Origin: Thermoanaerobaculia bacterium
GTDB lineage: Bacteria; Acidobacteriota; Thermoanaerobaculia; Multivoradales; JAIOJS01
NCBI GenBank assembly: GCA_963806095.1
Contig: CAWDWV010000002.1
Span: 1,054,281 to 1,118,280 of the forward strand
Reading direction: 5' to 3'
DNA length: 64,000 bases
Shown here: positions 1-52,546 of the stretch, in pieces
Position numbering within the stretch: position 1 is the stretch's first letter
How the letters are laid out: every line of letters begins with the position of its first letter
The notes under the pieces: generated by a model
Seen by the model: only the letters and a program-made list of their open reading frames with translations
Told to the model about the DNA's origin: nothing
Database searches by the model: none
Translations under genes and position numbers: made by a program

Positions 1-1552
1 CAATACACGGAGAGTCCGCGCTACCTGCGCCTGCACGAGGCCGACAACGTGGCCGTCATCGTCAACGACGGCGGCGTTTCGGCCGGCACGGTGTTCGGCG
101 ACGGCCTGCGCGTCCGCGACGCGATTCCGCAATCCCACAAGGTGGCGCTGCGGCCGATCGCCGAGGGCGAGGCGGTGCTGCGTTACGGGCAGGTCATCGG
201 CACGGCGCGGCGCGCCATCCCCGAAGGCAGCTGGGTCAAGGAAGCCGACCTCGTCATGCCGACGCCGCCGGCGCTCGACTCGCTGCCGCGGTGCACCGAC
301 GTGCCGCCCGACGCTCCGCCGCTCGAGGGGTACACCTTCGAGGGCTACAAGAACGCCGACGGGAGCGTCGGCACCCGCAACCTCCTCGGCATCACGACGA
401 CCGTGCAGTGCGTCACCGGTGTGCTGGACCACGCCGTCAAGAGGATCCGCGCCGAGCTCCTGCCGCGGTACCCGAACGTCGACGACGTGGTCGCCCTGAG
501 CCACGACTTCGGCTGTGGGGTCGCGTTCGACACGCCCGACGTCCAGATCCCGATCCGCACGGTGCGCAACCTCGCTCGCAACCCGAACCTGGGCGGCCAG
601 GCCCTGGTCGTCGGCCTGGGATGCGAGATGTTGCAGCCCGCGCAGGTCATCGCCGAGCGAGATGCTGGAGGTAGCGGCCTCGATCTCGACGAACCCTGGC
701 TCTACCGGCTGCAGGATTCACAACACGGCTTCGGCGAGATGATCGAGCGGATCATGGCGCTGGCCGAGCGACGCCTGCACAAGCTCGACCAGCGGCGTCG
801 CGAGACCTGCCCGGCCTCCGCCCTGGTGCTGGGAATGCAATGCGGCGGCAGCGATGCCTTCTCCGGCATCACGGCGAACCCGGCCCTCGGCTTCGCCTCC
901 GACCTGCTCGTGCGCGCCGGCGCGACGGTGATGTTCTCCGAGGTCACCGAGGTCCGCGACGCCGTGCACCTGCTCAGCGCCCGCGCCAAGGACGAGGAGG
1001 TGGCGCAGGCCTTGATCCGCGAGATGGACTGGTACGACCGCTACCTGGAGCGTGGCCACAGCGACCGCAGCGCCAACACCTCGCCGGGCAACAAGGTCGG
1101 CGGCCTGTCCAACATCGTGGAGAAGGCGCTCGGCTCCATCGCCAAGTCCGGCCGCTCGGCGATCAGCGGCGTGATCGGCCCGGGCGAACGCGCCGAGAGG
1201 AGCGGTCTGCTGTTCTGCGCCACCCCGGCCGGCGACTTCGTCTGCGGCACGCTGCAACTGGCTGCCGGCATGAACCTCCACGTGTTCACCACCGGGCGTG
1301 GCACGCCCTACGGACTGGCGATGGTGCCGGTGATCAAGGTCAGCACGCGCACCGAGCTGGCGCAGCGCTGGCCCGACCTGATCGACGTCGACGCCGGCCG
1401 GATCGCCAGCGGCCAGCAGCAGCGTCGAGGAGCTCGGCTGGGAGCTGTTCCACTACTACCTCGACGTCGCCAGCGGCCGGAAGAAGACCTGGGCCGAAGT
1501 GCACCGGATCCACAACGACCTGGCGCTCTTCAACCCCGCGCCGCTCACCTGA
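1..1552 (+). CDS. uxaA: Altronate dehydratase (UxaA family, SAF + UxaA C-terminal domains). 5' end lies outside the window. One frameshift near 1420-1424.
   Basis: The translation matches UxaA throughout ([10 protein letters not shown]... SAF N-terminus; [33 protein letters not shown]). The natural C-terminus ...[26 protein letters not shown]...stop at 1550-1552 is in the +1 frame relative to the upstream part. The six-frame ORF that runs on to 3159 is a read-through artefact. Confidence 0.75.
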
Positions 1553-1653
1553 GATCGCGCCGCAGGACCCTCGCGAGCCATCGCGGTGGCTACGCTCCGC
1601 CGCGTTTCAGCGCGAGTCGGCCCGGCCGGCACGCGGCACCCCGATCGTTCGTG

Positions 1654-3159
1654 ATGCAATGGGCGGCAATCGTGCGGCGTGTCCTCATCTTCGTTGCGAC
1701 GCTCGTCTGTGGCGCGGTTCTTGGCCTGACGTCCGCCTTCCTCTGGTCCTCCAGTCGCGGCGTGCAGCCGGAAACCTGGCATCGCCTGCGACCGGCGGCC
1801 GAGCTCACGGCTGAGAACGCCGGTGAGATCGTCGATCTCGCCGCCTACCGCCGCCTCGAGGATCGACTCTTCGACGAGACGCGGAGCGCGCTGGCGCGAG
1901 GGGTGAGCCGGTTCCCGGCCTTCAGCCGCTTCGACCCCGGGAGCCCGACGAATCCCGCGCGCTTCGGCCGCGACTGGAATCGCACCTTCGAGCTCGGCCC
2001 CACGCGGGCGCCGGCGGGCGAGGCGCTGCTGCTGCACGGCCTTTCCGATTCGCCCTACAGCCTGCGCGCGGTCGGCGAGCTCCTCGCTGCCCAGGGTTTT
2101 CACGTCGTCGGCCTGCGCATCCCCGGGCACGGCGCGGTGCCGGGCGGGCTGGCGGCGGCGCGGCGCGACGACTGGCGGGCAGCGGTGCGTCTCGGCGTCG
2201 GAGCGACCGGAGCGCGGGCCCGGGAGAAGGGCGTGCCGTTCGTCGTCGTCGGCTACTCGAACGGCTCGGCGCTGGCGCTCGACTACACGCTGACCGCGCT
2301 CGAGAAGGGCGAGGGCCCGGTCCCGGACCGCCTCGTCTTCCTCTCGCCGGCGTTCGCCGTCACGCCCGCGGCGGCGTGGGCGCGTTGGCCGCACCGGCTT
2401 AGCCGGGTCCCCGGACTCTCGAAGCTCGCCTGGACCTCGATCGAGCCCGAGTTCGACCCCTTCAAGTTCAACTCGTTCCCGGTGCTCGCCGGCGCCGAGA
2501 TCCACGAGCTGACGCTCGAGATCGAGGCGACGATGATCAGGCTGGAGGCCAGGAAAGACGGCCGCGCGCTGCCGCCCATCCTGGCGCTGCAATCGGTGGT
2601 CGACGCGACGGTGCCGCCGATCGCGTCGCTGACGCGGCTCTTCTCCCACACGCGCGGCAACCAGTCCGCGACCGAGCTCGTGCTCTTCGACGCCAACCGC
2701 GCCGCGGGCATCCGCGCCGTGCTCTCTCCGGCCGTCGACGAGCTACTCGCCCTGGCCAGGCCTGGTCGCTCGTTTCCGTTCCGCATCACGCTGATCACCA
2801 ACGCCGGCACCGGCACCGCGACGGTCGAAGCAGTCTCCCGGGCGCCGGGAGAGACTGCGGAGACGCGCCTACCGCTCGGGCTCGCCTGGCCGACGGGGAC
2901 CTACTCCCTGTCGCACGTTGCCGTGCCGTTTCCGCCCGACGATCCCGCCTATGGAATGGAGTCGTCCCCCGTCGGGCCGCCCTTCCCGTTCGGCGCCCTG
3001 AACCTCAGGGGCGAACGCGGCGCGCTGTTGATCCCGGACCAGCTCCTCATGCGCCTGCGCAGCAATCCGTTCATGGCGGTGGTCGAAGCGAAGATCGTGG
3101 CGTTCGTCGCGGCCGGCGACTCGCCCATCGCCGGCGCGGCCATCGCCGCGGCGCGGTAG
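1654..3159 (+). CDS. Alpha/beta hydrolase-fold protein (membrane-anchored, lipase/esterase-like)
   Basis: ATG at 1654 is followed by a hydrophobic N-terminal segment ([16 protein letters not shown]). HGLSDSPYS and the [10 protein letters not shown] nucleophile elbow (GxSxG) indicate a serine hydrolase. It sits in the same frame as the upstream uxaA remnant but is a separate gene. Confidence 0.6.
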
Positions 3160-3200: not shown

Positions 3201-4130
3201 TCAGCGATCGCGGGTGGCGAGGCCGACGACCCGTCGGCGCAGCGGCGCGAGCTGTTCCACCGGCGGCAAGGACGTGGGCACCAGCGTTGCCTGGTCGAGC
3301 ATCTCTCCCCGCCGCCAGAAGCCGTCCAGGATCTCGACTGCCCGGGGTGAGCTCGTGGGCATCACGACGGTGGCGGTGAGCTCTCGATCGCTCACCATCT
3401 TCGCCCCTTCGTCGGGGAGGCCGTCACAGCCCACGATCGGGATGGTGCCGAGTCCGTCCGCGCCTCTCTCGGCTTCGTGACGCTGGAGGGCGCGGCGGAC
3501 ACCAAGCGCCATCGCGTCGTTCTGACTGACGATGAGGTCCACCTCGCGCGCTCTCTTGGCGCCGAAGCGCAGCCAGTCGCTCAGTGCCTGGTCCGCTCGT
3601 TCCGCTTGCCACTTGCCTTCGACGACGTGGACGTCGAGCCGACTGCCCACGACCTCCCGGAACCCCTTCTCACGGCTCACCGCCGACGGCGCGTTGTGGG
3701 CACCGAGGATGAGCAGCACCGTGCCTCCCTCGGGAAGCAGCCGCAAGCTCTGTCGCCCCTGGATGCGGCCGATCTCCGTCTGGTCCGGCGCCACCGCTGC
3801 GAGCAGCCGCTCCGGGAACTGCCGCTTCAGGCCCTCCAGGTACCTGGGTATCCGGTTGAGGACCACGCAGTCCACGCCGCCCTTGGCCAGCGCGCTCACC
3901 GCGTTCTCCATCTCGTCGCCGGCCACCAGGAGCAGGAGCACCCCGTCCGGCCGGGGATCGGCCCGCAGGACCTCGTAGCACTGACCCATCTGTCGCATGA
4001 GCGAGCCATCGGCGAACCGGGGCTCGATGAAGCCCAGTCCGCGCTCGCGGGCGGCCGAGCGGGCGCTCTCCACCAGCAGCTGTTGATAGGCGTTGTCGGC
4101 GTCGGCGAGCAACAACTGGATCCGTCGCAT
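3201..4130 (-). CDS. Periplasmic-binding-fold (LacI-type sugar-binding) domain protein with no HTH
   Basis: The protein begins MRRIQLLLADADNAYQQ... and has the typical PBP type I/LacI C-terminal domain pattern (VDCVVLNRIP, GAHNAPSAVSREKGF, DLIVSQNDAMALG). No DNA-binding helix-turn-helix is detected. It is convergent with uxaA (sugar-acid metabolism). Confidence 0.55.
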   Translation of the reverse strand: MRRIQLLLADADNAYQQLLVESARSAARERGLGFIEPRFADGSLMRQMGQCYEVLRADPRPDGVLLLLVAGDEMENAVSALAKGGVDCVVLNRIPRYLEGLKRQFPERLLAAVAPDQTEIGRIQGRQSLRLLPEGGTVLLILGAHNAPSAVSREKGFREVVGSRLDVHVVEGKWQAERADQALSDWLRFGAKRAREVDLIVSQNDAMALGVRRALQRHEAERGADGLGTIPIVGCDGLPDEGAKMVSDRELTATVVMPTSSPRAVEILDGFWRRGEMLDQATLVPTSLPPVEQLAPLRRRVVGLATRDR

Positions 4131-4262
4131 CGCGGTAAAGGTACCATCGCTGCCAACGGGTGGCAGCCACGTGGGGCCTCGGCGCTCACCGAACGGTAGG
4201 GCGCGCTCGGCGCGCGCCATTCGCGGGATGCGAGTCGCCGATTGGCGGGCGCGGAGCCCACC

Positions 4263-5348
4263 CTACAGTCGCGACGGCAACACCTCGGGCGGCAGCGTCG
4301 CCGCGCCTTCGATCAACGCCCGCGCCGCGACCCGTCCGATCTCCCAGCTGGCGCCGAGACCGTAGCCGCCCAGGCCCGCCAGCCACCAGAACGCCGGCAG
4401 GCGCGGGTCGGGGCCGATCACGGGCAAGGCGTCGGGCGCCTTGGTGCGGAAGCACGACCACGCGCGCTCGACCGGCGACTCCGCCAGCGCCGGCGCCAGC
4501 CGCCGCAGCCCTTCGCGCAGCCGCTCCTCGACGCCCGGCGACACCGTCTCGGCGAGCTCGGCCGCCGGCTCCTCGTCGCACATGCAGGAGAGCGTGCCTT
4601 CGCCGTCGCGGCGGAAATAGAGATCCCATGCGAGATGCCAGACGTATGGCAGTCCGAGGGGCAACTCGACGCGGTGTAGGAAGAGATGACGCTTGTGAGG
4701 AACGAGAGGCAGCGGCGCGGCACCGGCGCAGGCGGCGAGCTGCGCCGCCCACGCGCCGCCGGCGTTGACCAGTCGCTCGGCCTCCACGGGTCCGGCGCTG
4801 GTCTCGACGCGGAACGGACCGTCGCCGGCGATCGCGGTCACCTCGACGCCGCACGCGACCTCGACACCACGCTCGCGCGCGCCGTCGAGGTAGAAGGCGA
4901 GCAGCCGGTGCGGGTCGAGCACGCCGTCGCCCGGCGTGAAGAGCGCGGCGGCGAAGCCGGCGCCGTCGACCCACGGCACCCGCGCGCGCACGGCGTCGGC
5001 CGCCACCACCTCGCTCGCCACCGCGTCGTCGCGCCGCGCGGCGAATTCCGCCTCGGCACCGAGCAGCAGCGAGCCACAGCGCTCGAAGCCCACCGCGCCG
5101 GCGCGTTCGGCGTAGGCGTAGGCGCGGGCGCTCGCGGCAGTGAGCCGCCGCACCAGCGGCTCGGCGACCGACTGCAACACCAGCCGCGCGTTGCGGCCCG
5201 AAGCGTGCGCGCCCGGCCGCGGCGCGCGTTCGACCAACAGCACCGACGGCGGCGAGCCGCGGCGCGGCTCCCCCGCGCCGGCGAGGTGGTAGACGAGCGC
5301 CGCACCGGCCACGCCACCGCCCACCACCAGCACGTCCACGCGCTTCAC
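4263..5348 (-). CDS. FAD-dependent oxidoreductase (DAO family; glycine/D-amino-acid oxidase-like)
   Basis: N-terminal dinucleotide-binding motif VLVVGGGVAGAALVYHL. DAO-like C-terminus (GLGGYGLGASWEIG). Clean 361-aa ORF. Confidence 0.75.
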   Translation of the reverse strand: MKRVDVLVVGGGVAGAALVYHLAGAGEPRRGSPPSVLLVERAPRPGAHASGRNARLVLQSVAEPLVRRLTAASARAYAYAERAGAVGFERCGSLLLGAEAEFAARRDDAVASEVVAADAVRARVPWVDGAGFAAALFTPGDGVLDPHRLLAFYLDGARERGVEVACGVEVTAIAGDGPFRVETSAGPVEAERLVNAGGAWAAQLAACAGAAPLPLVPHKRHLFLHRVELPLGLPYVWHLAWDLYFRRDGEGTLSCMCDEEPAAELAETVSPGVEERLREGLRRLAPALAESPVERAWSCFRTKAPDALPVIGPDPRLPAFWWLAGLGGYGLGASWEIGRVAARALIEGAATLPPEVLPSRL

Positions 5349-5445
5349 CGGCCAAGGTTACCCGCCCCCTGCTTCGCGTACCGGAGCGCCGCCGAGCCTG
5401 GCCCGGCTACCCGCCGGAGCGCCCGTCACCCCGCATGTAGAATCC

Positions 5446-8400
5446 ATGAAACGCCATGAAACATCGCGGCGCGAGCAGCTTGCCGGCATTCGACGGCGGG
5501 GCCCCCTGTCCACGGTGAGTCAGGGCCTCATCGTCCGCTGCCCGGCGTGCGGCTCCCGCCTGCGCCTGCAGCCCGGCCGCGAGCTGCCCGACCGCTTCAA
5601 GGTGCGGTGCTCGTCGTGCGCCAAGCCGTTCCTGGTGCGGCGTAAGGACGAGGGACAGCGCCCGCCGGTCGACCCGCTCGACAACACGCTCACCGGCGAG
5701 AAGGTGCCGTCCTCGCCGGCTCTCGACGACCAGGCGACCCACGTCCACGACGCGCACCACCAGCTCACCGCTTCGCCTCCGTCCGTCGCTCCCCGCTCGC
5801 CGTTGCCGCCGTCGCAGCCCTCGCTGCAGCGCCCGGCTCCGGCGCCCTCGCCGCCGCCCACGCCTGCTGCCGCCTCCCGCCACACCATCGCCGGCGGCGG
5901 CGAGCAGCCGAGGAAGCTCGGCTCCACCTTCCTCCCCGGCGAGCTGGTGGCCGGCCGCTACCGCATCGAGCGCTTCATCGCCAAGGGCGGCATGGGCGAG
6001 GTCTACGACGCCTTCGACACCGCCCTCGGCGACCACGTGGCGCTGAAGACCATCCGCCCCGACGTCGCCCACGACGAGTCGGCGCTCGAGCGGTTCAAGC
6101 GCGAGATCCACCTGGCGCGCCAGGTCACCCACCGCAACGTCTGCCGCATCCACGACCTCGGCTCGCACTCTTCCGAGTCGCCGGTCGCAGCGCTCTACCC
6201 GCGCGGCGAGATCCTCTTCGTCAGCATGGAGCTGCTGCGCGGCGAGACGCTCGCCGAGCGCATCACCGAGAAGGGGCCGATGAGCGAGGCCGAGGCGCTG
6301 CCGATCCTGCGCCAGATGGCCGCCGCCCTCGACGCCGCCCACAAGGCGGGGATCGTCCACCGCGACTTCAAGAGCGCCAACGTGGTGCTGGTGCAGGGCG
6401 ACGGCGAGACCCGCGCCGTGGTCACCGACTTCGGCCTCGCCCGCGCCTCGCACCGCGAGTCGGGTGCCACGCTGACCGTCGCCGGCGCGGTGATGGGCTC
6501 GCCCGCCTACATGGCGCCCGAGCAGGTCGAAGGCAGCGGCACGACGCCGGCGGTGGACGTCTACGCGCTCGGCATCGTCGTCTTCGAGATGGTCACCGGC
6601 CGGCTGCCGTTCCGGGGCGAGAGCCCGCTGTCGACGGCGATCAAGCGGCTCACCGAGGCGCCGCCGAAGCCGAGCGAGCTCAAGCCCGGCCTCGACCCGC
6701 GGTGGGATGCGGGCATCCTGCGCGCGCTCGCCCGCAAGCCCGAGGAGCGCTTCAAGAGCGCCGGCGACTTCCTGTCGGCGGTCGACCCGTCGCCGATAGC
6801 CGCCGCCCTCGGCACCGCCGGCATCACCCGCAAGCGGCTCTTCCTCGCCGTCGCCGCCGGTTTCCTCGTCGCCCTGGCGCTGGTCGCCAACTTCTACGTC
6901 TGGCAGCGGCGCGCCGCCAACCAGGAGGGGCGGCTCGAAGTGCCGACGACGGCGCGGCCCGCGGTGGCCGTGCTCGGGCTCAAGAACGTCACCGCCGACC
7001 AAGGGCTCGACTGGCTGTCGACGGGGCTCCCCGAGATGCTCGCGTCCGAGCTCTCCGGCGGCGGCAGGGTGCGTCTCATCCCCAGCGAGAACGTGGCGCG
7101 GGCGCAGCTCGAGCTGGGCCTCGAGCCCGGCGGCACCTGGGGCAACGACACCCTCGAGCGCGTGCGCCGCAACCTCGGCTCCGACTACGTGGTGACCGGC
7201 TCGTACACAGCGCTCGGCGGCGGTCAGAACGGCCAGAACGGCCAACTCCGCCTCGACCTGCGGCTGCAGGACACGTCGACGTCCGGCAACTCCACCGCCG
7301 TCGCCGTGTCGGGGCCGCGCGAGGCCGTCTTCCAACTCGTCTCGCAGGCGGGCGCGAAGCTGCGCGAGGCGCTGCACCTGGAGTCCGGCGGCGCCCGCTG
7401 GTCGACCACCAACCCCGAAGCGGCACGCCTCTATGCCCAGGGCGTCGAGAAGCTGCACCGCTTCGATGCGCAGGGCGCCAGCGAGCTGCTGCAGCAGGCG
7501 GTGGCGGCGGACGCGCGTGACCCGCGCGCGCACTCGGCGCTCGCTTCCGCGTACACGGCGCTCGGCTATGTCGAGAAGGCGCGCGAGGAGGCGCGACAGG
7601 CGGTCGAGCTCTCGGCCGCGCTGCCCGAGACCGAGCGGCAGGAGGTGCGCGCGCAGTACCTCGAGGCGGCCGGCGATTGGGCCGGCGCGGCGCGCGCCTG
7701 GGACGAGATCTGGCGCCGCCAGCCCGACGACCTCGAGTACGGCCTCAAGCTGGCTCAGGCGTTGACGGCAGCCGGCGAGCCGGCGCGCGCCCTCGACGTC
7801 GCGGGCGTCCTGCGGCACCTGCCCTCGGTGGCGGCAGACGACGTGCGCATCTACTTCGCCGAGGCGAGCGCCGCCGGCGCGCTCGGTCAGTCGAAGGTGC
7901 AGCAGCAGGCGGCGGCGAAGGCGGCCGAGGTCGCCGCGACGCAGGGGGCGCGACTGCTGCGCGCCCGCGCTCTGCTCTACGAAGGGTGGGCGCTGCGCAA
8001 CCTCGGCAACCCCGAGCGCGCTCAGGGGGTCACGGCGGAAGCCGAGGGGCTCTTCCAACAGGCCGGCGACGAGTCGGGGGTGGCGAAGGCGCGGGTGCAG
8101 CGCGGGATCCTGCTCTTCGACCAGGGCGACCTCGACACCGCCCGTCGCAGCTTCGAGAAGGCGCTCGCCACCTACCGCCAGCTCGGCGACAAGGGGAACG
8201 AGGCGCAGGCGCTCAACAACCTCGCGTTGGTGCTCAAGAGCCAGGGTGACGTGCAAGCGGCGCTCGACCTCTACGGGCAGTCGCGCGCGCTGTCGCAGGA
8301 AACCGGCAACCGCGTCGGTGTGGCGAGCGCGGAGAACAACATCGGCGCCGTCGCCTCCAAGCGCGGCGACCTCGCCGGCGCGCTCGCCGCCTTCGACCAC

Positions 8401-9300
8401 GCCGCCTCGCTCGCCAAGCAGGTGCACGACAAGACCCTCGAGGCGAGCTCGATCTCCAACGCCGCGGCGACGCTGCGGCGGCTGGGCCGCCTCGCCGAGG
8501 CTGAGACCCGCCACCGCCAGGCGCTGCAGCTGCGGCGGCAGCTCGGGCAGGCCTTCGCCGAGGCCGGCTCGCTCACCGACCTCGCCGCAGTGCAGTTGGA
8601 CCGCGGCGACCTGACGCCGGCGGCCACCACCTACCAGCAGGCGCTGGACCTGGCGCGGAAGACCGGCAACCACCGCTTCGAGGCCTTCGCGCTCGCCGGG
8701 CTCGGCCAGGTGCGGCTCGAGGCGGGAGACCTGGCGGAGGCGGAGAAGCTGCACCGCGAGGCGCTGAAGCTGCGCGAAGGGGGCGGCGACCAGAGCACCG
8801 CCGCCGAGAGCCGCCTCGCCCTCGCCACCGTCGCCTTCGAGCAGGGGCGCTTCGCCGAGGCCGAGGAGCTGGCGCGGGCGGCGCAAGAGCGCTTCGCCGC
8901 CGAAGGCGCCGTCGACCTCGTCGCCTGGGCGCAGGCCGTGCGCGGCCGGGCGATGGCGTTCAGCGAGCGCCAAGCCGAGGGGCAGGAGCTGGTGACCGCC
9001 GCGCTGCAGCGCGCCGAGAAGAGCGAGGACCTGCGCGTGCGTTGCGAGGTGCGGCTCGCCGCCGCCCGCGTCAACGCCCGCACCGGCTCGGTGGCGCAGG
9101 CCGGGGAGCTCGCCGCCGCGGCCGAGGCCGCAGCGGGCAAGGCCGGGCTGCTGCCCGTGCAGCTCGAGGCGCAGCTGCTCCAGGGCCAGCTCGCCCAGGC
9201 GTCGGGGGACGCGGCGCGCGGCGCCCAGCTGCTCGCGGCGGTGCGCGCGCGGGCGCAGCGGTCGGGGCTCGGTCTGCTGAGCAAGAAGGCCAGCGGCTAG
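5446..9300 (+). CDS. Ser/Thr protein kinase with N-terminal MJ0042-type zinc ribbon, a transmembrane segment and a C-terminal TPR array
   Basis: CPACGS...CSSCAKPF zinc ribbon. Kinase motifs are present (GGMGEVYDA, VALKTIRP, HRDFKSANVVL, DFGLAR, SPAYMAPEQ). A hydrophobic segment LFLAVAAGFLVALALVANFYVW follows, then about 10 TPR-like repeats. There are no frameshifts across 3.85 kb. Confidence 0.85.
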   Translation: MKRHETSRREQLAGIRRRGPLSTVSQGLIVRCPACGSRLRLQPGRELPDRFKVRCSSCAKPFLVRRKDEGQRPPVDPLDNTLTGEKVPSSPALDDQATHVHDAHHQLTASPPSVAPRSPLPPSQPSLQRPAPAPSPPPTPAAASRHTIAGGGEQPRKLGSTFLPGELVAGRYRIERFIAKGGMGEVYDAFDTALGDHVALKTIRPDVAHDESALERFKREIHLARQVTHRNVCRIHDLGSHSSESPVAALYPRGEILFVSMELLRGETLAERITEKGPMSEAEALPILRQMAAALDAAHKAGIVHRDFKSANVVLVQGDGETRAVVTDFGLARASHRESGATLTVAGAVMGSPAYMAPEQVEGSGTTPAVDVYALGIVVFEMVTGRLPFRGESPLSTAIKRLTEAPPKPSELKPGLDPRWDAGILRALARKPEERFKSAGDFLSAVDPSPIAAALGTAGITRKRLFLAVAAGFLVALALVANFYVWQRRAANQEGRLEVPTTARPAVAVLGLKNVTADQGLDWLSTGLPEMLASELSGGGRVRLIPSENVARAQLELGLEPGGTWGNDTLERVRRNLGSDYVVTGSYTALGGGQNGQNGQLRLDLRLQDTSTSGNSTAVAVSGPREAVFQLVSQAGAKLREALHLESGGARWSTTNPEAARLYAQGVEKLHRFDAQGASELLQQAVAADARDPRAHSALASAYTALGYVEKAREEARQAVELSAALPETERQEVRAQYLEAAGDWAGAARAWDEIWRRQPDDLEYGLKLAQALTAAGEPARALDVAGVLRHLPSVAADDVRIYFAEASAAGALGQSKVQQQAAAKAAEVAATQGARLLRARALLYEGWALRNLGNPERAQGVTAEAEGLFQQAGDESGVAKARVQRGILLFDQGDLDTARRSFEKALATYRQLGDKGNEAQALNNLALVLKSQGDVQAALDLYGQSRALSQETGNRVGVASAENNIGAVASKRGDLAGALAAFDHAASLAKQVHDKTLEASSISNAAATLRRLGRLAEAETRHRQALQLRRQLGQAFAEAGSLTDLAAVQLDRGDLTPAATTYQQALDLARKTGNHRFEAFALAGLGQVRLEAGDLAEAEKLHREALKLREGGGDQSTAAESRLALATVAFEQGRFAEAEELARAAQERFAAEGAVDLVAWAQAVRGRAMAFSERQAEGQELVTAALQRAEKSEDLRVRCEVRLAAARVNARTGSVAQAGELAAAAEAAAGKAGLLPVQLEAQLLQGQLAQASGDAARGAQLLAAVRARAQRSGLGLLSKKASG

Positions 9301-9340
9301 CGTCGCGGGCGTTCACAGACCTGCCCAAGGGCGGGCGGAA

Positions 9341-10633
9341 ATGGAATCCCCTACCCGTTATCTGCGGCCGTCAGCGGCGGGACGCGCCGCGCTGAAGAAG
9401 CTCGGCGCGAATTACCCGGATCCGGTGAAATGGATTCATCAGGAGCAAAGGCTCAACGATCGGACCTCGAGCACAGAGTACTACTCGATCCAACCCACTT
9501 CGGTTCCGCCCGAATTCTGGCCCGAGCGACAACCGGTCTTTTGGTTACCGGAATTCGAGGCACCGAAGGATCAGTTCCGCCTCTTTCAGAATCCGGCACG
9601 CCCTGTGCCCTGGTACCTCTCGGGATCGCGGCCGGAATTCTATTCCTATCTGGTGCATCCATTGACCGTGCAGTATTTCCTCGATCGCGACATCAAGGGC
9701 GCGCGGTGGAGGAAGCCAAGGTTCCTGGCCACGCCGATGGCGTCCCACCGCACTCTCCTGGTGTGGGATCCACGGTCCGACAGGCCACCTTTCGCGGTCA
9801 AGACGTCGCTCAACCGGTGGATCGCAGGGCAGAATCGAAACGTCAGGCTCAAGGAGGTCGGGCGAAGCGTCGCTGTCTCTTCGCTGCTCGCGGGTCGCGA
9901 GGCAAACCTGAAGGGGCAGGGAATTCTCTTGCTCGACGACCCGGTAGGGCTGATGCCCAAAGGAGCCAATGCCGGCCTGGTGACGAGAGACATACCCTGG
10001 CGACTCGGCGCAGGTGAGGAGATAGTCCCGCTGTTCAGCTTGCTCGCTTCCTCGCGTGGACGTCCACGGATCGTGGACTTGATCGCGGCGAGCCGACTCG
10101 CGCCCTTGGCGTGGGTGGACAAGTTCATTTTTGCCCCACTCGTGTACCAGGCCTACTTCCTCGGCATGACGGAAGGCCTGCTCGGCGAGATGCACGAGCA
10201 GAACGTATTGATGGAATTGCGGGACGGCGTCCCGACGAAGCGGTTCTGGCATCGCGACCTGGGAGGGTTCGTCTTCGATCGCGAGCTGCGCCGTCTCGCC
10301 AATAAGGGATTCGCAGAGCTTCCGGCGGGCATTCAGCAGCGACACCTGGGGCGAGGCCTGGCGGTCTTTCACCTGGTGCTGCGCATGTACTTGCGAGGGT
10401 CCATGGCGTATGCGATCGGCGAGACGCTGCGAAAGCACTTCGAGATCCCGGCCGATAGTGTGGCCGAGCTCTATGACGTCAGGGTGAGCGAGCTCCAGAA
10501 GCTCATCCTTGCCGCAAATGGAATCCGCACGACGAAGAACGCCGAAAAGGACCTCGAGCGGTATCGGACGCGAAAGCTGCCAGGCGGTACCTGGCGTTGG
10601 AAGAGCTTGAGGGAAGCACTTCGAGACTGGTGA
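9341..10633 (+). CDS. Hypothetical protein with weak IucA/IucC (NIS synthetase)-like motifs. Low-GC orphan.
   Basis: Clean 430-aa ORF with markedly lower GC (about 57-58% versus about 72% flanking). It contains ASHRT, AVKTSL and HEQNVLMEL segments that resemble the SxRT / K / HxQN catalytic motifs of IucA/IucC enzymes. It lacks the equivalent of the N-terminal ~150 aa, so the family assignment is tentative. Confidence 0.55.
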   Translation: MESPTRYLRPSAAGRAALKKLGANYPDPVKWIHQEQRLNDRTSSTEYYSIQPTSVPPEFWPERQPVFWLPEFEAPKDQFRLFQNPARPVPWYLSGSRPEFYSYLVHPLTVQYFLDRDIKGARWRKPRFLATPMASHRTLLVWDPRSDRPPFAVKTSLNRWIAGQNRNVRLKEVGRSVAVSSLLAGREANLKGQGILLLDDPVGLMPKGANAGLVTRDIPWRLGAGEEIVPLFSLLASSRGRPRIVDLIAASRLAPLAWVDKFIFAPLVYQAYFLGMTEGLLGEMHEQNVLMELRDGVPTKRFWHRDLGGFVFDRELRRLANKGFAELPAGIQQRHLGRGLAVFHLVLRMYLRGSMAYAIGETLRKHFEIPADSVAELYDVRVSELQKLILAANGIRTTKNAEKDLERYRTRKLPGGTWRWKSLREALRDW

Positions 10634-10869
10634 CCGCGGCGGCCCTCGCGGATGCTCGGGGCCGCCGCATCCACGTGTGGCCGGCGTCGCTCGCTGCGCC
10701 GTCGCCTCGACCGCGCGATTGGCGGCGCCCCCTCGCCCGCTGGGGCGGCAGCGGCGACGGAATATCCGCGCGCCGCTTCGCGTAGCCAGGTAACGCAGGG
10801 AGCGCCGGCTATACTGCCGCCAAGCAACCGCCTCGCATCAGGGCCACCGTCAAACCAGGGAGCCTCCGC

Positions 10870-12357
10870 ATGAGCGCCATCCTCAGCCTGCCCTACGTCC
10901 TCGCCGGCCTGTTCGTCCTCGCCTTCCTCTACATCATCGCCCGCGCCCTCTACAAGAAGGCGGGCCCGGACGAGGCGCTGATCGTCTACGGCCGCCGCAA
11001 GCTGTTCGGGCAGAAGGTGCGCGACGAGGCGGGGCAGGTGGAGAGCTTCCGCATCGTGCGCGGCGGCGGCACCTTCGTGTGGCCCGCCTGGGAAGCGGCG
11101 TCACGGCTCTCGCTCAAGATGATGACCCTCGACATCGACCTCAAGCACGTCTACACGATGGAGGGCATCCCCATCAACGTGCGGGCGGTGGCGCAGGTGA
11201 AGATCGGCAGCGCCATCGACCGCATCCGCCGCGCCGCCGAGGGCTTCCTCGGCATCAACCCCGACCAGATCGCGTCCACCATCAAGGAGACGGTGGCCGG
11301 CCACCTGCGCGGCATCATCGGCACCTTGACCGTCGAGACGCTCTACCGCGACCAGAAGCGCTTCCAGGAGCGCGTCCGCGAGGAGGCCCACGTCGACCTC
11401 GAGGGCATGGGCTTCGAGTTCAAGTCGTTCGTCTTCCAGGAGATCCAGGACGACGAGGGGTACCTCAACGCGCTCGGCCAGCCGAAGATCCAGGAGGCGC
11501 TCAAGAACGCCCGCATCGCCACCGCCAACGCCGACCGCGACGCGCAGGCTCGAGGAGGAGGGGGCCCGCCAGCAGAAGGAGTCAGAAGCGCTTCGACGTC
11601 GACACCGAGATCGCCGACTCCGACAAGTTCCTGTCGCTCAAGAAGGCCTCGATCAAGAAGGAGGTCGACGTCGCCAGCGCGCAGGCCACCAAGGCCGGCG
11701 AGATGGAGATGAAGGTCCAGGACATCAAGATCGCCGAGCAGGAGGTCGAGCGCCGCAAGCTGCAGCTCAACGCCGACGATCCGCGAGCAGGCCGACGCCG
11801 GAAGTTCGAGACCGAGCGGGTCGCCGACGCCGAGCAGTACCGCATCGAGCGCGCCGCCTCGGCCGAGCGCAAGCGCCGCGAGGAGCAGGCGCACGCGCTC
11901 AAGGCCGAGGGCCTCGCCAAGGCCGAGGCCGAGTCGGTGATGCGCCGGAACATCGGTCTCGCCGAGGCCGAGGCGATCGCCGCCAAGGGCAACGCCGAGG
12001 CCGAGGCGCGGCGCAAGCTCGCCGAGGCGCTCAAGCTCTACAACGAGGCCGGCCTCTCGATCGAGGCGCTCAAGGTGCTGCCCGAGATCGCCGCCGCGGT
12101 CGCCGAGCCGCTGTCGCGCGCCGGCGCCACCACCATCATCAGCAACGGCAGCGCCGGCAGCGGCACCGGCGCCGCCAAGCTCTCCGAGGACGTCATGCAG
12201 GTGATGTCGCAGCTCTCGCCGATCATGCAGCAGCTCGCCGGCGTCGACTTGAAGACGCTTCCTGCAGGACGTCTCGAAGCTGCCCGGAGCGGCGACCAAG
12301 GGCCTGCGCGCCGAAGCTCTGCGCGTCGAGCCGATCGTGCCCGAGCCGCGGAAGTAG
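10870..12357 (+). CDS. Flotillin-like SPFH/band-7 protein (YqiK/FloA-type), frameshifted at ~11555-11590 (x2) and ~12263
   Basis: N-terminal TM (LPYVLAGLFVLAFLYII) plus the SPFH core (EALIVYGRRK..., TLDIDLKHVYTMEGIPINVRAVAQVKI). An EA-rich coiled-coil tail (AEAEAIAAKGNAEAEARRKLAEA) follows. The natural C-terminus ...LLQDVSKLPGAATKGLRAEALRVEPIVPEPRK-stop at 12355-12357 is reached only after frame corrections. Confidence 0.7.
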
Positions 12358-12369
12358 CCGGAGCGCACG

Positions 12370-13653
12370 GTGAGCCAGAAAGCGCCGGTGCCCGGGGGCG
12401 ACCTCGCGCAGCTGCTCGCCGCGCTGCGCGGAGCGCCCGATTCGTGGAGCCGTCTCAAGCTGGTGGCGAGCGGCGCCCGCGCGCTCGCCAAGCTGACGCC
12501 GCAGCAGCGCGTCCAGCTGCTGCGGCAGCTCGGCCTGCAGGGAGCCGAGGAGCTGGCCGAAGCGGCGGCGGGCGGCGACGCGCAGACGGCGGCGGCGATG
12601 ACGAGCGCGCTCAAGGCGCTGGAGGCGGACCCGCGCCGGCTGCAGCAGCTCGCCGGAGCGATTGCCGATCCGAGCTCGCGCCGCGCCACGTTGATGGGGC
12701 TCGGCGCACACGTCATCGAGACGGTGACGGCGCCGGCGCCGGCGCCGGCGAAGACGAAGCCGACGGCGACAGGGAAGGCTGGGGCTGCGAGAGGCGGCGG
12801 GCAGTCGCGGACTGTCACCGAGACGGCAGCGGTGCCGCCGAAGCTGCCTCCAATGCCGCCGCAGCAGCCGACGGCGTCCGGCGCCGGGACGCCGCGGTTG
12901 CGCGACGAGCTGGTGGCCGCGGCCACGGCGCTGCTCACCGGAGCGCAGCCCGGCGCACCGCAGCCGCCGGCGCCCCCGGCACAACCGGCGACTCCCGCGC
13001 CGCCCGCCCAGCCGACGACGCCCGCCACGCCACAGCCGGCCACGCCACCGCCGTCGCTGCCGCCGACGCCGCACCCCTCGCCGTCGACTCCGCAGCCGCC
13101 GCCCGCGACCCCGCCGGCGCCGCCACAGCCGATCACGCCGCCGGCGACGCCGCCGTCGCTGCCGCAGCCCGTGCACCCGGTGACGCCGCCGTCGCCGACC
13201 GCGGACTCGACGACGACGCTCGACTCGGTCGCCGCCGCGCCGCAGTCAGCTCAACCGGCGCTGATCGCCACCGAGCTCGCCGCCCCGGAGCAGGCGCGAA
13301 CGGCGGGCACGCGCGTCGCGGCGATCGGCACGCTGCGCGACCTCCGCCGCCGCCTCGCCGGCGGCGAGGCGCTCGCGGCCGACGACGTCTCGACACTCTT
13401 CGCCCAGGAGCTGCCCCAGGGTTGGGCCCGCCGCCGCGCCCTCTCGGCGCTCTTCGCCGAGCGCCGGCCCGACCGGCTCGACGACGCGCTGACGCTGGTC
13501 GGGCAGGTGGGCTCGCCGGGGGACCGGCGGTGGGCGCTCGCCGACCTCGCCTCCAGCCGCGAGTGGGCGGACGGCGACTGGGCGCGTCTCGTCGCCGCCG
13601 CCGCCGGCGACGGCGAGCGTCGTCGCCTCGCCCTGCGCCGCCGCCGGGCGTAG
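12370..13653 (+). CDS. Hypothetical protein with a central Pro/Thr/Ala-rich low-complexity linker
   Basis: GTG start 12 nt after the flotillin stop. The N- and C-terminal regions are globular-looking. They flank about 90 aa of (P/A/T/Q)-rich repeats (PPAPPAQPATPAPPAQPTTPATPQPATPPPSLPPTP...). Confidence 0.5.
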   Translation: MSQKAPVPGGDLAQLLAALRGAPDSWSRLKLVASGARALAKLTPQQRVQLLRQLGLQGAEELAEAAAGGDAQTAAAMTSALKALEADPRRLQQLAGAIADPSSRRATLMGLGAHVIETVTAPAPAPAKTKPTATGKAGAARGGGQSRTVTETAAVPPKLPPMPPQQPTASGAGTPRLRDELVAAATALLTGAQPGAPQPPAPPAQPATPAPPAQPTTPATPQPATPPPSLPPTPHPSPSTPQPPPATPPAPPQPITPPATPPSLPQPVHPVTPPSPTADSTTTLDSVAAAPQSAQPALIATELAAPEQARTAGTRVAAIGTLRDLRRRLAGGEALAADDVSTLFAQELPQGWARRRALSALFAERRPDRLDDALTLVGQVGSPGDRRWALADLASSREWADGDWARLVAAAAGDGERRRLALRRRRA

Positions 13654-17438: not shown

Positions 17439-17555
17439 GCCCGCGGAGGCCCTCGGCTCCATCGGCACACCTCGCCGGTGCGGCTGGCTGGGCGGGTCCA
17501 GTGCCGGCCAAGCCGCCCAGCGCCTGGCAGCGCCCTTGCTGACGCGCGTCAGGGC

Positions 17556-18611
17556 ATGAGGATCACGGTGCTTGCCTACGTCGACCCGTCCGACGGGCGC
17601 GACGGGGTGGTCGACGAAGTGAGCGAGGCGTTGCGCGCTCGCCACTCGGTGGAGGTCCTCGAGATCCATGACGACCTCGACCCTCTGATCCACGGCCTGC
17701 GCGAGCAGAGGCCCGATCTCGTCTTCAACCTCTGCGAGATGTTCGGCGACGACGTCCAGGGCGACGCGCGCGTCGCCGCGACGTTGGAGCTGCTGCGCGT
17801 CCCGTTCACCGGCAGCGGCGCCGCCGAGCTGTTCCTGGTCCAGGACAAGGGACTGACCAAGAAGATGCTCGCCTTCGACGGCATCCTCTATCCCAACTTC
17901 GCCGTCTTCTCCGAGAACTCCGACTTCGAGACCGGCGGCAACCTGCGCATGCCGCTGTTCGTCAAGCCGCTGCGCGGGGACGCTTCGATCGGCATCAGCG
18001 GCGCGGATGCGCTGGTCCGCGATTCATCCTCGTTGATGAAGCAGGTGCTTCGCATCCACTCCGAGGAGAAGGACGCGGCGCTCGCCGAGGAGTACATCGA
18101 GGGGCGCGAGCTGTACGTGGCGGTGATCGGCAACCTCGAACCCGAGGCGCTGCCGCCGATCGAGCTCGACCTCTCGGGGCTGCCCGACCACATGCCCCCG
18201 GTGGCCGACAACGCCGTCAAGTTCGACGAGGCGCTCGGCGAGCGTTACGGCATCGAGGCGCGCGTCGCGGAGCTGCCCGACGAGCTGCGAGCGCGGCTGC
18301 AGAAGGTGGCGGTGCAGGCCTACCGCGCGCTGCGCGTGCGCGACTACGGCCGCGTCGACCTGCGGCTCACCGAGGCGGGCGAGATCTACGTGCTCGAGGT
18401 CAACGCCAACTGCTACCTGGAGAAGGAGCAGGAGTTCGCCATGGCGGCGGAGGCCGCGGGGTACGACTACGAGGCGCTGCTCGAGAAGATCGTGCAGCTC
18501 GCGGTCGAACGGCAGGGCGTCCAGCCGCAGCGTCTTCAGCGGCGACGTCGGGACCGCATCGTCAGCGACACCCCGAAGCCCAGCGAGCGCTCAGCCACCG
18601 CGACACGCTGA
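17556..18611 (+). CDS. ATP-grasp family protein (D-alanine--D-alanine ligase-like)
   Basis: MRITVLAYVDPSDG... Ddl-like N-domain. The ATP-grasp core is present (LFVKPLRGDASIGIS, EEYIEGRELYVAVIG, DYGRVDLRLTEAGEIYVLEVNANCYL). Confidence 0.7.
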   Translation: MRITVLAYVDPSDGRDGVVDEVSEALRARHSVEVLEIHDDLDPLIHGLREQRPDLVFNLCEMFGDDVQGDARVAATLELLRVPFTGSGAAELFLVQDKGLTKKMLAFDGILYPNFAVFSENSDFETGGNLRMPLFVKPLRGDASIGISGADALVRDSSSLMKQVLRIHSEEKDAALAEEYIEGRELYVAVIGNLEPEALPPIELDLSGLPDHMPPVADNAVKFDEALGERYGIEARVAELPDELRARLQKVAVQAYRALRVRDYGRVDLRLTEAGEIYVLEVNANCYLEKEQEFAMAAEAAGYDYEALLEKIVQLAVERQGVQPQRLQRRRRDRIVSDTPKPSERSATATR

Positions 18612-45483: not shown

Positions 45484-48018
<2,535 letters not shown>

Positions 48019-51913: not shown

Positions 51914-52546
51914 TCAGTTGTCGATCTCGGCCTTGATCGTCTGCGCCACGATCGAGCCGTCGGCCTGGCGGGCGCCGCGCCCCTCGACACGCGGGGCGCG
52001 GTTGGCCGCCACCGCGCCGGCGAGCGCCGGCAGCGTGCGCAGGTCGCCGCGGGCGCTCCACTGCGTCTGCGCGTTGACGACGACGTTGGTGCCGGTGGCG
52101 AGGACGATGACGTCTCCCCGCACGGCGAGGACGGTAGCCTCGAACTCCGTGCCGCCGCGTGGGGCGCGAGGCTGCTGCGGGTTGTCGTCGCCGCCGCGGC
52201 CGCGACGGCCGCGCCGCCGCTGGTTGTCGTTGTCGTCGTTGCCGCCGCGGCCGCCGTTGCGGCCCTGGTCGGCGGTGCCATCGTCGTTGCCGCCGCCGCC
52301 GCCACCTCCGTTGTCGTCGGCAGAACCAGTGTCGGAGCTACCATCGTCGTCGCCGCCGTGGCGTTTGGCGATGAGGTCGTCGCTAGCCACCGAGGCAGTC
52401 GCGCTGGAGGCCGGGAAGGACTTGGCAGCGGAGTCGAAGGCGATGGTGGGCTCGGTCGGGCTCGAAGATGCCGGGGAGCAGGCGCCGAGCGCGCCGGCGG
52501 CGAGGGCGAGGGAGGCGACGAGCAGTAGCGGTCGATGCTGATTCAT
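51914..52546 (-). CDS. Lipoprotein with Gly/Asp/Asn-rich low-complexity region and C-terminal beta domain (DUF5666-like). Hypothetical.
   Basis: Signal peptide and lipobox LVASLALAAGALGAC. GGDDDGSSDTGSADDNGGGGGGGNDDGTADQGRNGGRGGNDDNDNQ. Confidence 0.55.
   Translation of the reverse strand: MNQHRPLLLVASLALAAGALGACSPASSSPTEPTIAFDSAAKSFPASSATASVASDDLIAKRHGGDDDGSSDTGSADDNGGGGGGGNDDGTADQGRNGGRGGNDDNDNQRRRGRRGRGGDDNPQQPRAPRGGTEFEATVLAVRGDVIVLATGTNVVVNAQTQWSARGDLRTLPALAGAVAANRAPRVEGRGARQADGSIVAQTIKAEIDN

Follow-up and report, generated by a model that had tools for sequence, protein, structure and literature searches.

The 64,000-bp stretch of DNA analyzed here, referred to below as the window, belongs to a bacterium of the acidobacterial class Thermoanaerobaculia. 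[quoted passage not shown] The coordinates of the gene, of its conserved motifs and of the borders of the slot in which it lies are given in Table 1. The open reading frame (ORF), to which a first-pass annotation of this DNA had drawn attention, is uninterrupted and lies on the + strand; we took an antisense ORF at positions 9545-10438 to be a by-product of the high GC content. The mini-NIS start codon lies 40 bp past the stop codon of the kinase gene, and this short gap makes it likely that both genes are cotranscribed and that mini-NIS is expressed by read-through.

Table 1. Coordinates in the window of the mini-NIS gene, its conserved motifs and the borders of its slot
Feature	Positions	Strand	Basis or remarks
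Ser/Thr protein kinase with TPR array, 1284 aa; left border of the slot	5446..9300	+	Pfam Pkinase, TPR_12
Inserted cassette: 40-bp leader, gene and ~160-bp trailer	9301..10795	+	blastn homology breakpoints versus L022 and L024
mini-NIS gene (430-aa thumb-less IucA/IucC-superfamily NIS synthetase-like ligase, predicted)	9341..10633	+	ORF, composition, fold, profile, dN/dS
SxRT phosphate-binding motif A134-S135-H136-R137-T138	9740..9754	+	Aligned to AcsD 'ASPTASIRT'; equivalent to DesD S275/R277/T278
K154-T-S156-L ... R166, lysine and ATP-binding-loop arginine	9800..9838	+	Equivalent to DesD K291/R303 and AcsD 'KGSLNVRITNCVR'; aligned to AsbB and AcsD
R216, arginine of the 'R(D/E)xP' motif	9986..9988	+	Aligned to AlcC/IucC 'WRENP'; invariant in A4
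H285-E-Q287-N288, catalytic His and Mg2+/phosphate ligands	10193..10204	+	Equivalent to DesD H440/E442/N443 and AcsD 'HLQN', also 'HGEN'; invariant
R305-D306, Mg2+-binding aspartate	10253..10258	+	Equivalent to DesD D460 and AcsD 'RDFEG'; D306 invariant
Conserved flotillin upstream block, contains CCGGCTATACTGC; right border of the slot	10796..10869	+	Kept in 5/5 aligned loci, including empty-site L022
Flotillin/Band_7 gene	10870..12340	+	Pfam Band_7; begins 236 bp after mini-NIS

The composition of mini-NIS sets it apart from its surroundings. Its GC content is 0.614 versus 0.728 in the remaining window, and the gene is the minimum-GC stretch among all 1293-bp windows of the 64 kb (mean 0.726, standard deviation 0.027), about 4 standard deviations low. 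Thus, the anomaly noted in the first-pass annotation is real, although the GC content proposed for the gene (about 57%) has to be corrected to 61.4%. The GC contents at the first, second and third codon positions (GC1/2/3) are 0.63/0.46/0.75, and GC3 deviates from that of the 22 other window genes (0.927, standard deviation 0.032) with a z value of -5.5. The synonymous-codon usage, at a distance of z = 8.1 from the pooled window genes, was likewise unlike that of the neighboring genes, as had been noted before.

When the mini-NIS protein was searched as a single sequence, its Pfam matches were below threshold, the best one being to FhuF (23.2 bits, cut-off 25.2; E 1e-4) and another to IucA_IucC (20.5 bits, cut-off 25); phmmer gave weak matches to AlcC and DesD, and an NCBIfam scan gave no match. 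A profile built from an alignment of 63 close and distant family members (A4) matched AsbB (1.2e-19), AcsD (9e-14), IucC (1e-10) and IucA (1e-8), and also SbnC, AlcC, DesD, DfoC and NcdF, the E values of SbnC, AlcC and DesD falling within the overall range of 1e-19 to 2e-5. Moreover, distant family members exceed the Pfam thresholds on their own, e.g. P0122 with 44 bits and P0136 with 55 bits. An AlphaFold2 model was built from 61 family members (mean predicted local distance difference test score, pLDDT, 71.8) and compared by Foldseek with the PDB. The top 50 matches were all NIS synthetases (AsbB, IucC, IucA, AlcC, DesD, DfoC, AcsD, NcdF and SbnC), with a probability of 1.0 and query-normalized TM-scores of 0.37-0.61, at 12-18% identity to the solved enzymes.

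In DesD, the ATP phosphates and Mg2+ are bound by residues S275, R277, K291, R303, R370, H440, E442, N443 and D460, which every NIS type conserves (PMC9356276). Their counterparts in mini-NIS, mapped from HMMER alignments with the roles taken from that study, are S135, R137, K154, R166, R216, H285, Q287, N288 and D306. These residues are invariant or at least 90% conserved across an alignment of 22-87% identity, form invariant or nearly invariant columns of the superfamily alignment A4 (22-29% identity), and are identical in the five high-GC copies of the gene (see below) as well as in two divergent Pyrinomonadaceae copies. S135 and R137 were invariant or nearly so in both alignments A1 and A4, and K154 and R166 were invariant in the latter. 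The correspondence of H285, N288 and D306 to DesD H440, N443 and D460 is exact, with a 20-residue numbering offset, and R216 is probably the counterpart of DesD R370, as extrapolated from this offset. Glutamine 287 takes the position of DesD E442, which is likewise occupied by Q in IucC, AsbB and AcsD. The weakest stretch of the model (residues 158-181) coincides with the ATP-binding loop, which is flexible in DesD and disordered in unliganded NIS structures (PMC9356276). Taken together, sequence, fold and active site indicated that mini-NIS belongs to the IucA/IucC (NIS synthetase) superfamily. The relationship suggested by the first-pass annotation was therefore confirmed, as were the ASHRT, KTSL (residues 154-157, nt 9800-9811) and HEQN segments that it had singled out as reminiscent of catalytic motifs, all of which align to ATP- and Mg2+-binding residues of NIS synthetases. 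Its guess of an adenylating or ligase domain also appears to be right in kind, the protein being a truncated NIS-type domain with a predicted complete active site.

NIS synthetases have the domain order thumb-finger-palm (PMC9356276). In mini-NIS this three-domain architecture (~580-620 aa) was found only in part, the finger and the palm being present and the thumb region absent. Family position 23 is the first to align with IucA, at its residue 125, and family position 61 the first to align with AcsD, at its residue 187; the mini-NIS family therefore lacks about 100-126 N-terminal residues. Hence, the truncation claimed earlier does exist, but it amounts to roughly one fifth of a full-length enzyme rather than to the N-terminal third. 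None of the nine matched NIS enzymes (AsbB, AcsD, IucC, IucA, SbnC, AlcC, DesD, DfoC and NcdF), whose chains measure 576-787 aa, is short of its N-terminal region.

Far from being an orphan, as had been supposed, mini-NIS was found to belong to a tightly conserved family. A word-indexed search covering 5.8 billion proteins returned 183 matches, the best 120 of which show 66-100% identity in full-length alignments and a length of ~430-450 aa, and HMMER, run exhaustively against 1.84 billion cluster representatives, found 472 clusters (50% identity level) that reached E<=1e-3, of which 42 reached E<=1e-30. Homologues in named sources bear the label 'hypothetical' or, where it was assigned automatically, 'IucA/IucC family'. 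In reference genomes, the close family was located in the Acidobacteriota, in Pyrinomonadaceae and Blastocatellia, and two distant members that carry names come from Bdellovibrionales-type metagenome-assembled genomes (MAGs). A literature search gave no description of short or non-siderophore NIS homologues, nor of IucA/IucC proteins in Acidobacteria. Mini-NIS is, accordingly, an intact member of a conserved and uncharacterized short branch (~430-450 aa) of the IucA/IucC superfamily.

The nearest relative of mini-NIS, P0002 (87% identity), comes from an MAG labeled Thermoanaerobaculia and lies on contig L018, which matches the window with 88.7% DNA identity along 5.8 kb and shows the order kinase, mini-NIS, flotillin. 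The same arrangement was found in L019 (80% identity), L103 (77%) and L104 (77%), and the kinase gene is collinear with those of L018, L019, L022, L024 and L103. The GC3 of mini-NIS is 0.72 in L018, 0.75 in L019, 0.84 in L103 and 0.81 in L104, whereas that of the flanking genes in these four loci is 0.89-0.99; in L018 and L019 the GC content of the gene lies 10-13 points under that of the flanks. Among the window, L018 and L019, the number of synonymous substitutions per site (dS) of mini-NIS (0.35-0.50) keeps in step with that of the kinase flank (0.31-0.53), which indicates that the gene was already present in their common ancestor, and the ratio of nonsynonymous to synonymous substitution rates (dN/dS) is 0.20-0.24. 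Mini-NIS is thus under purifying selection. The first-pass annotation had described the gene as recently acquired and had named conservation at this position with similar GC in close relatives as an observation that would speak against it. Precisely such a conservation, with the same slot and a depressed GC3 in four related loci and a dS matching that of the flanks, was found, and it argues against a recent acquisition.

Nevertheless, the slot is not always occupied by mini-NIS. The gene was present in none of 80 metagenomic flotillin-orthologue loci recovered, in ~46 of which the upstream sequence reaches 1.6 kb or more, and two of these loci, L022 and L024, share the kinase-flotillin synteny. 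In L022, whose flotillin shares 95% identity with the one of L018, blastn revealed an empty site with 132 bp in place of window positions 9292-10856, and on either side of it the flank is collinear with the window (DNA identity 79% and 86%). In L024, the locus most closely related to L019, which does bear mini-NIS (both flanking proteins are 93% identical), 2623 bp with a GC content of 0.55-0.60 stand in place of window positions 9291-10795, and this insert encodes, at L024 positions 3318-5621 on the - strand, a CHAT protein of 767 aa with a match to PADLOC BovA (Borvo) at E 3e-44. Because close relatives differ in carrying mini-NIS, a Borvo-like gene or nothing, the occupancy of the slot turns over, and the presence of the Borvo-like insert in L024 indicates that the kinase/flotillin slot behaves as a cargo-exchange hotspot.

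A source of the gene was suggested by its relatives in other acidobacteria. In nine organism-labeled Blastocatellia/Pyrinomonadaceae-type loci the GC content of the gene is 0.50-0.56, within 0.04 of that of the flanks. In a neighbor-joining tree rooted on distant homologues, the high-GC copies were monophyletic in 100/100 bootstraps and branched inside the Pyrinomonadaceae/Blastocatellia radiation in 88/100; they are nested in Pyrinomonadaceae at 66-75% identity. The foreign origin proposed earlier is therefore upheld by the empty site in L022, the alternative cargo in L024 and the nesting of the high-GC copies in Blastocatellia. Atypical composition, an empty site and a host-discordant phylogeny, as expected of a genomic island, were all found, and signatures of mobility were not. 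The 64 kb contain no tRNA gene, the cassette has no recombinase, a search for att-like direct repeats at its borders gave only short matches at chance level, in agreement with the earlier remark that the flanks carry no obvious attachment repeats, and plasmid and phage collections contained no close homologues but only canonical IucA/IucC genes at <=31% identity. The two junctions and the empty site share a 'GGAAT', a match too brief to be taken as a repeat. In the simplest history, mini-NIS is native to Pyrinomonadaceae/Blastocatellia (~53% GC), and a single gene copy, without its module partners, passed from a Blastocatellia-type donor to the ancestor of a group of Acidobacteriota of ~72% GC, inserting between the Ser/Thr-kinase-TPR gene and the flotillin gene. 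This single transfer was followed by vertical descent under purifying selection, partial amelioration, and occasional loss or replacement in the slot.

To describe the surroundings of the gene in its native clade, 12 further Blastocatellia-type loci were compared with L001. The M15 (VanX-like) peptidase was found in 12/12 loci, the PRTase_3 phosphoribosyltransferase in 11/12 and a Cof-type HAD-IIB phosphatase in 10/12. In seven loci one or two copies of the PRTase_3 gene lie immediately upstream of mini-NIS, and in six of those seven the phosphatase gene lies directly downstream. An S9 peptidase and two glycosyltransferases, both on the reverse strand, complete the module, together with two variable members, a D-glutamate-cyclase-family hydro-lyase and a 700-aa protein without known domain, for which no Pfam, NCBIfam or PADLOC match was obtained. 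The module was located at L001:9195-17622, and also in L002-L014 and L020, with a gene order rearranged between sublineages. In the window, a D-Ala-D-Ala-ligase-family ATP-grasp gene lies at 17478-18611 (+), 7 kb downstream of mini-NIS; it is of note in that a D-Ala-D-Ala-dipeptidase-like M15 peptidase and a D-Glu cyclase homologue are among the native partners in Blastocatellia, but its proximity is probably a coincidence.

The distant relatives of mini-NIS show other arrangements. In P0124 and P0129 a mini-NIS-type domain is fused to an N-terminal cytidylyltransferase-like domain, and one such fusion sits between lipid-A-type acyltransferase and MltA genes. P0122 and P0136 contain tandem double domains (842-937 aa), P0241 carries the domain within a 1478-aa protein with a weak ART-PolyVal match (18.6 < 31.2 bits), and one short form stands alone, adjoining a Y1 transposase. 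Genes for siderophore tailoring, export or uptake were found neither in the 12 native Blastocatellia loci nor in two distant contexts, and the distant contexts suggest a role in the chemistry of small molecules or of the cell envelope and not in the acquisition of iron.

A similar picture was obtained in the window. Pfam analysis of 30 larger ORFs distributed over its 64 kb revealed no decarboxylase, monooxygenase, acyltransferase, exporter, TonB receptor or Fe-regulation gene, in agreement with the absence of siderophore context stated in the first-pass annotation. The scanned ORFs include a dehydratase-hydrolase fusion, a sugar-binding protein, a DAO oxidoreductase, a hybrid histidine kinase, an EAL/GGDEF protein, a Ddl-like ATP-grasp protein, LeuRS and fatty-acid oxidation enzymes. 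When the Blastocatellia partners (M15, the 700-aa protein, PRTase_3, D-Glu cyclase, HAD and S9) were compared with the window by tblastn, no homologues were found. No sigma-70-like promoter or intrinsic terminator scored above shuffled sequences, the stretch 9100-10900 giving no promoter-like sites; hairpins after the mini-NIS stop codon fold no better than shuffles (z = -0.63), and the region contains no Rfam families.

In the window, the flotillin gene that borders the slot is broken up by +1 indels at three sites (near 11546, 11584 and ~12253), with a frame change of 2->3->1->2 relative to the intact L019 orthologue (tblastn), and these indels represent either long-read assembly errors or gene decay; the orthologues of L019 and L024 are intact, as is the adjacent mini-NIS ORF. 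Directly after flotillin, a 427-aa proline-rich protein without Pfam domain is encoded at 12370-13653 (+). The N-terminal ~120 residues of this protein are 85-90% identical in L021, L022 and L024, which suggests a conserved flotillin-associated partner. Besides the kinase-TPR protein at the slot, the window encodes a second one at 45484-48018 (+). The many PADLOC PD-T4-6 matches (E 7e-87) of the kinase domain of one of these two proteins most likely reflect generic kinase similarity and were not counted as evidence of defense. A 748-aa TPR and CHAT protein is encoded at 52535-54781 (+) with native GC content (GC3 0.91), in a genome of which one relative holds the Borvo-like CHAT gene in the hotspot. 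Finally, the 1036-aa ORF at 49-3159 (+) joins a complete galactarate/altronate dehydratase (SAF, GD_AH_second and GD_AH_C) to a C-terminal Hydrolase_4 domain, and this putative dehydratase-alpha/beta-hydrolase fusion appears to be uncommon.

The homology, the conservation of the active site and the purifying selection described above are observations, and from them we infer a chemistry and a non-siderophore product as follows. Mini-NIS is likely to be a stand-alone ATP-dependent carboxylate-amine/alcohol ligase. Judging from its conserved active site, the enzyme would bind Mg-ATP and adenylate a carboxylic-acid substrate, and an amine or hydroxyl nucleophile would then attack the acyl-adenylate to give an amide or an ester; in the lineage of the window, the enzyme would be self-sufficient. 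Its product is probably not a classical siderophore, because siderophore tailoring, export and uptake genes are lacking both here and in the donor clade. As a whole, the reading that mini-NIS is a functional, cytoplasmic, stand-alone, thumb-less NIS-superfamily ligase transferred from a Blastocatellia-type donor is the one that we favor, and we consider it fairly probable.

Several points weigh against this reading. The lone mini-NIS sequence scores under the Pfam gathering thresholds, and the AlphaFold2 model is of moderate confidence. The thumb domain contributes to the dimer interface of canonical NIS synthetases (PMC9356276), and its loss could therefore change or abolish the canonical mechanism. 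The context scan spans 64 kb of the genome, and partner genes could lie elsewhere. In addition, a single NIS synthetase is reported to make rhizoferrin from primary metabolites in Ralstonia pickettii (PMC7857480), so that missing tailoring genes would leave room for a siderophore role. As for the history of the gene, there is no net GC gain on terminal branches, where polarized synonymous third-position changes from A/T to G/C (W>S) numbered 24 and those in the opposite direction (S>W) 22, in a test that is distorted in the flanks, where recent S>W changes are in surplus. An ongoing amelioration may be read from the GC3 differences between lineages (0.72-0.84), and selection for low GC3 is a possible cause of the same pattern.

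The main rival explanation, which we regard as unlikely, is that mini-NIS is a one-enzyme siderophore synthetase of the rhizoferrin/staphyloferrin type that would join citrate to a common di-/polyamine or amino acid, with the transport genes located elsewhere. A complete ATP/Mg2+ site in a member of the NIS superfamily, the citrate-using AcsD and AsbB among the top profile matches, and the rhizoferrin precedent (PMC7857480) are all in agreement with such a role. In contrast, the 30 larger window ORFs scanned include no TonB-dependent receptor, exporter or Fe-regulation gene, and none occurs in the 12 native neighborhoods, in which the partners are the M15 peptidase, PRTase_3 and the Cof-type HAD phosphatase. 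The fusions of distant relatives to cytidylyltransferase-like domains, with lipid-A acyltransferase and MltA genes alongside, and the N-terminal region kept by 9/9 characterized NIS enzymes matched also argue against it, and the lack of any iron-related gene beside the family members in the contexts examined was the reason for rating it lower. That mini-NIS is instead a conflict or defense cargo of a hotspot slot, making or modifying a small molecule for defense against phages or competitors or for stress, seems quite improbable. It would fit with the low-GC Borvo-like CHAT protein found in the same slot of L024, with the varying slot content among close relatives, and with the distant homologues linked to an ART-PolyVal match and to a Y1 transposase; the PRTase_3 family, moreover, is said to have been defined in Ter-associated 'nucleoside-like metabolite' systems. 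However, the hotspot argument depends on one alternative cargo, the ART match is below threshold, mini-NIS has no PADLOC match at E<=0.01, its close homologues are absent from known plasmids and phages, and in every Blastocatellia locus examined it is a syntenic gene of native GC content among housekeeping-looking genes.

The truncation relative to canonical enzymes, and FhuF as the best single-sequence Pfam match, could also be taken as signs of a catalytically dead remnant or of an FhuF-like ferric-siderophore reductase or binding protein, which we hold to be very unlikely. FhuF reductases carry a C-terminal Cys-ligated 2Fe-2S cluster, and the absence of any cysteine in the 430 residues of mini-NIS excludes an Fe-S center of this kind. 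The FhuF Pfam domain is merely the C-terminal palm region of NIS synthetases, including the HxxN motif, and both the invariance of the nucleotide- and Mg2+-binding residues across relatives of ~25% identity and a dN/dS of ~0.2 speak against a dead enzyme. A further rival concerns the origin of the gene, whose low GC could be a gene-specific selected composition in a vertically inherited acidobacterial gene rather than the mark of a transfer. The GC3 depressed alike in five lineages and the polarized substitutions without net W>S gain are consistent with this possibility. It is nonetheless a highly improbable one in view of the empty site with collinear flanks in L022, of 44 more distant flotillin loci (at least 1.6 kb of upstream sequence) that lack the gene, of the nesting of the high-GC copies in Pyrinomonadaceae, and of the spread of GC3 among the recipients, which is expected from differing degrees of amelioration. 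A bolder reading than the one we favor, and to us a doubtful one, is that mini-NIS represents a distinct widespread family applying NIS chemistry to a non-siderophore product and moving, in this lineage, as an exchangeable single-gene cassette in a hotspot that can hold a Borvo gene instead, with a hint of a conflict or stress role and not of one in iron acquisition. If this were true, the product could be an amide, ribosylated or D-amino-acid/cell-envelope-linked, whose synthesis involves the PRTase_3, HAD and M15 partners, or else an envelope modification in the case of the cytidylyltransferase fusions.

Under the favored reading of a transferred, stand-alone, thumb-less ligase, the locus is interesting rather than extraordinary, and it does not overturn current understanding. 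To our knowledge, NIS synthetases have been described almost only for their part in siderophore synthesis and as drug targets linked to virulence. The existence of a conserved thumb-less family without iron context suggests that the IucA/IucC adenylation scaffold serves other amide or ester chemistry. This bears on annotation, since mini-NIS genes automatically receive a 'siderophore synthetase' label, and may be of interest for the engineering of NIS enzymes in biocatalysis, in line with recent oligoamide work. The locus also provides a clean natural case of single-gene transfer between classes within the Acidobacteriota, and it illustrates both a slow or incomplete GC amelioration over a dS of ~0.5 and an intergenic slot with turnover of its cargo.

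When compared with known systems, mini-NIS resembles the NIS synthetases AsbB, AcsD, IucA, IucC, AlcC, DesD and SbnC (PF04183 and PF06276) in the finger/palm fold and in the SxRT, K...R, R, HxQN and D elements. It differs from them in being ~150-190 residues shorter, without the thumb region of the first 100-126 residues, in having no siderophore genes nearby, either in the window or in the native clade, and in that some of its relatives are fused to cytidylyltransferase-like domains or tandemly duplicated. Rhizoferrin synthetases are full-length enzymes encoded in iron-regulated loci with transport genes, and the thumb-less mini-NIS, which lacks such transport neighbors, is set apart from them on this description. 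Both are, on the other hand, stand-alone NIS enzymes, those of the Ralstonia pickettii and FslA type needing no tailoring partners (PMC7857480). With the ferric-siderophore reductase FhuF (PF06276) mini-NIS has in common the homology of the C-terminal domain, but it contains no cysteine and carries the full set of adenylation residues. Finally, the Borvo (BovA, CHAT) cassette of L024 occupies the same intergenic slot and is likewise a low-GC single-gene insert, whereas the CHAT protein that it encodes is unrelated to mini-NIS and lies on the opposite strand, and mini-NIS itself has no match in PADLOC.

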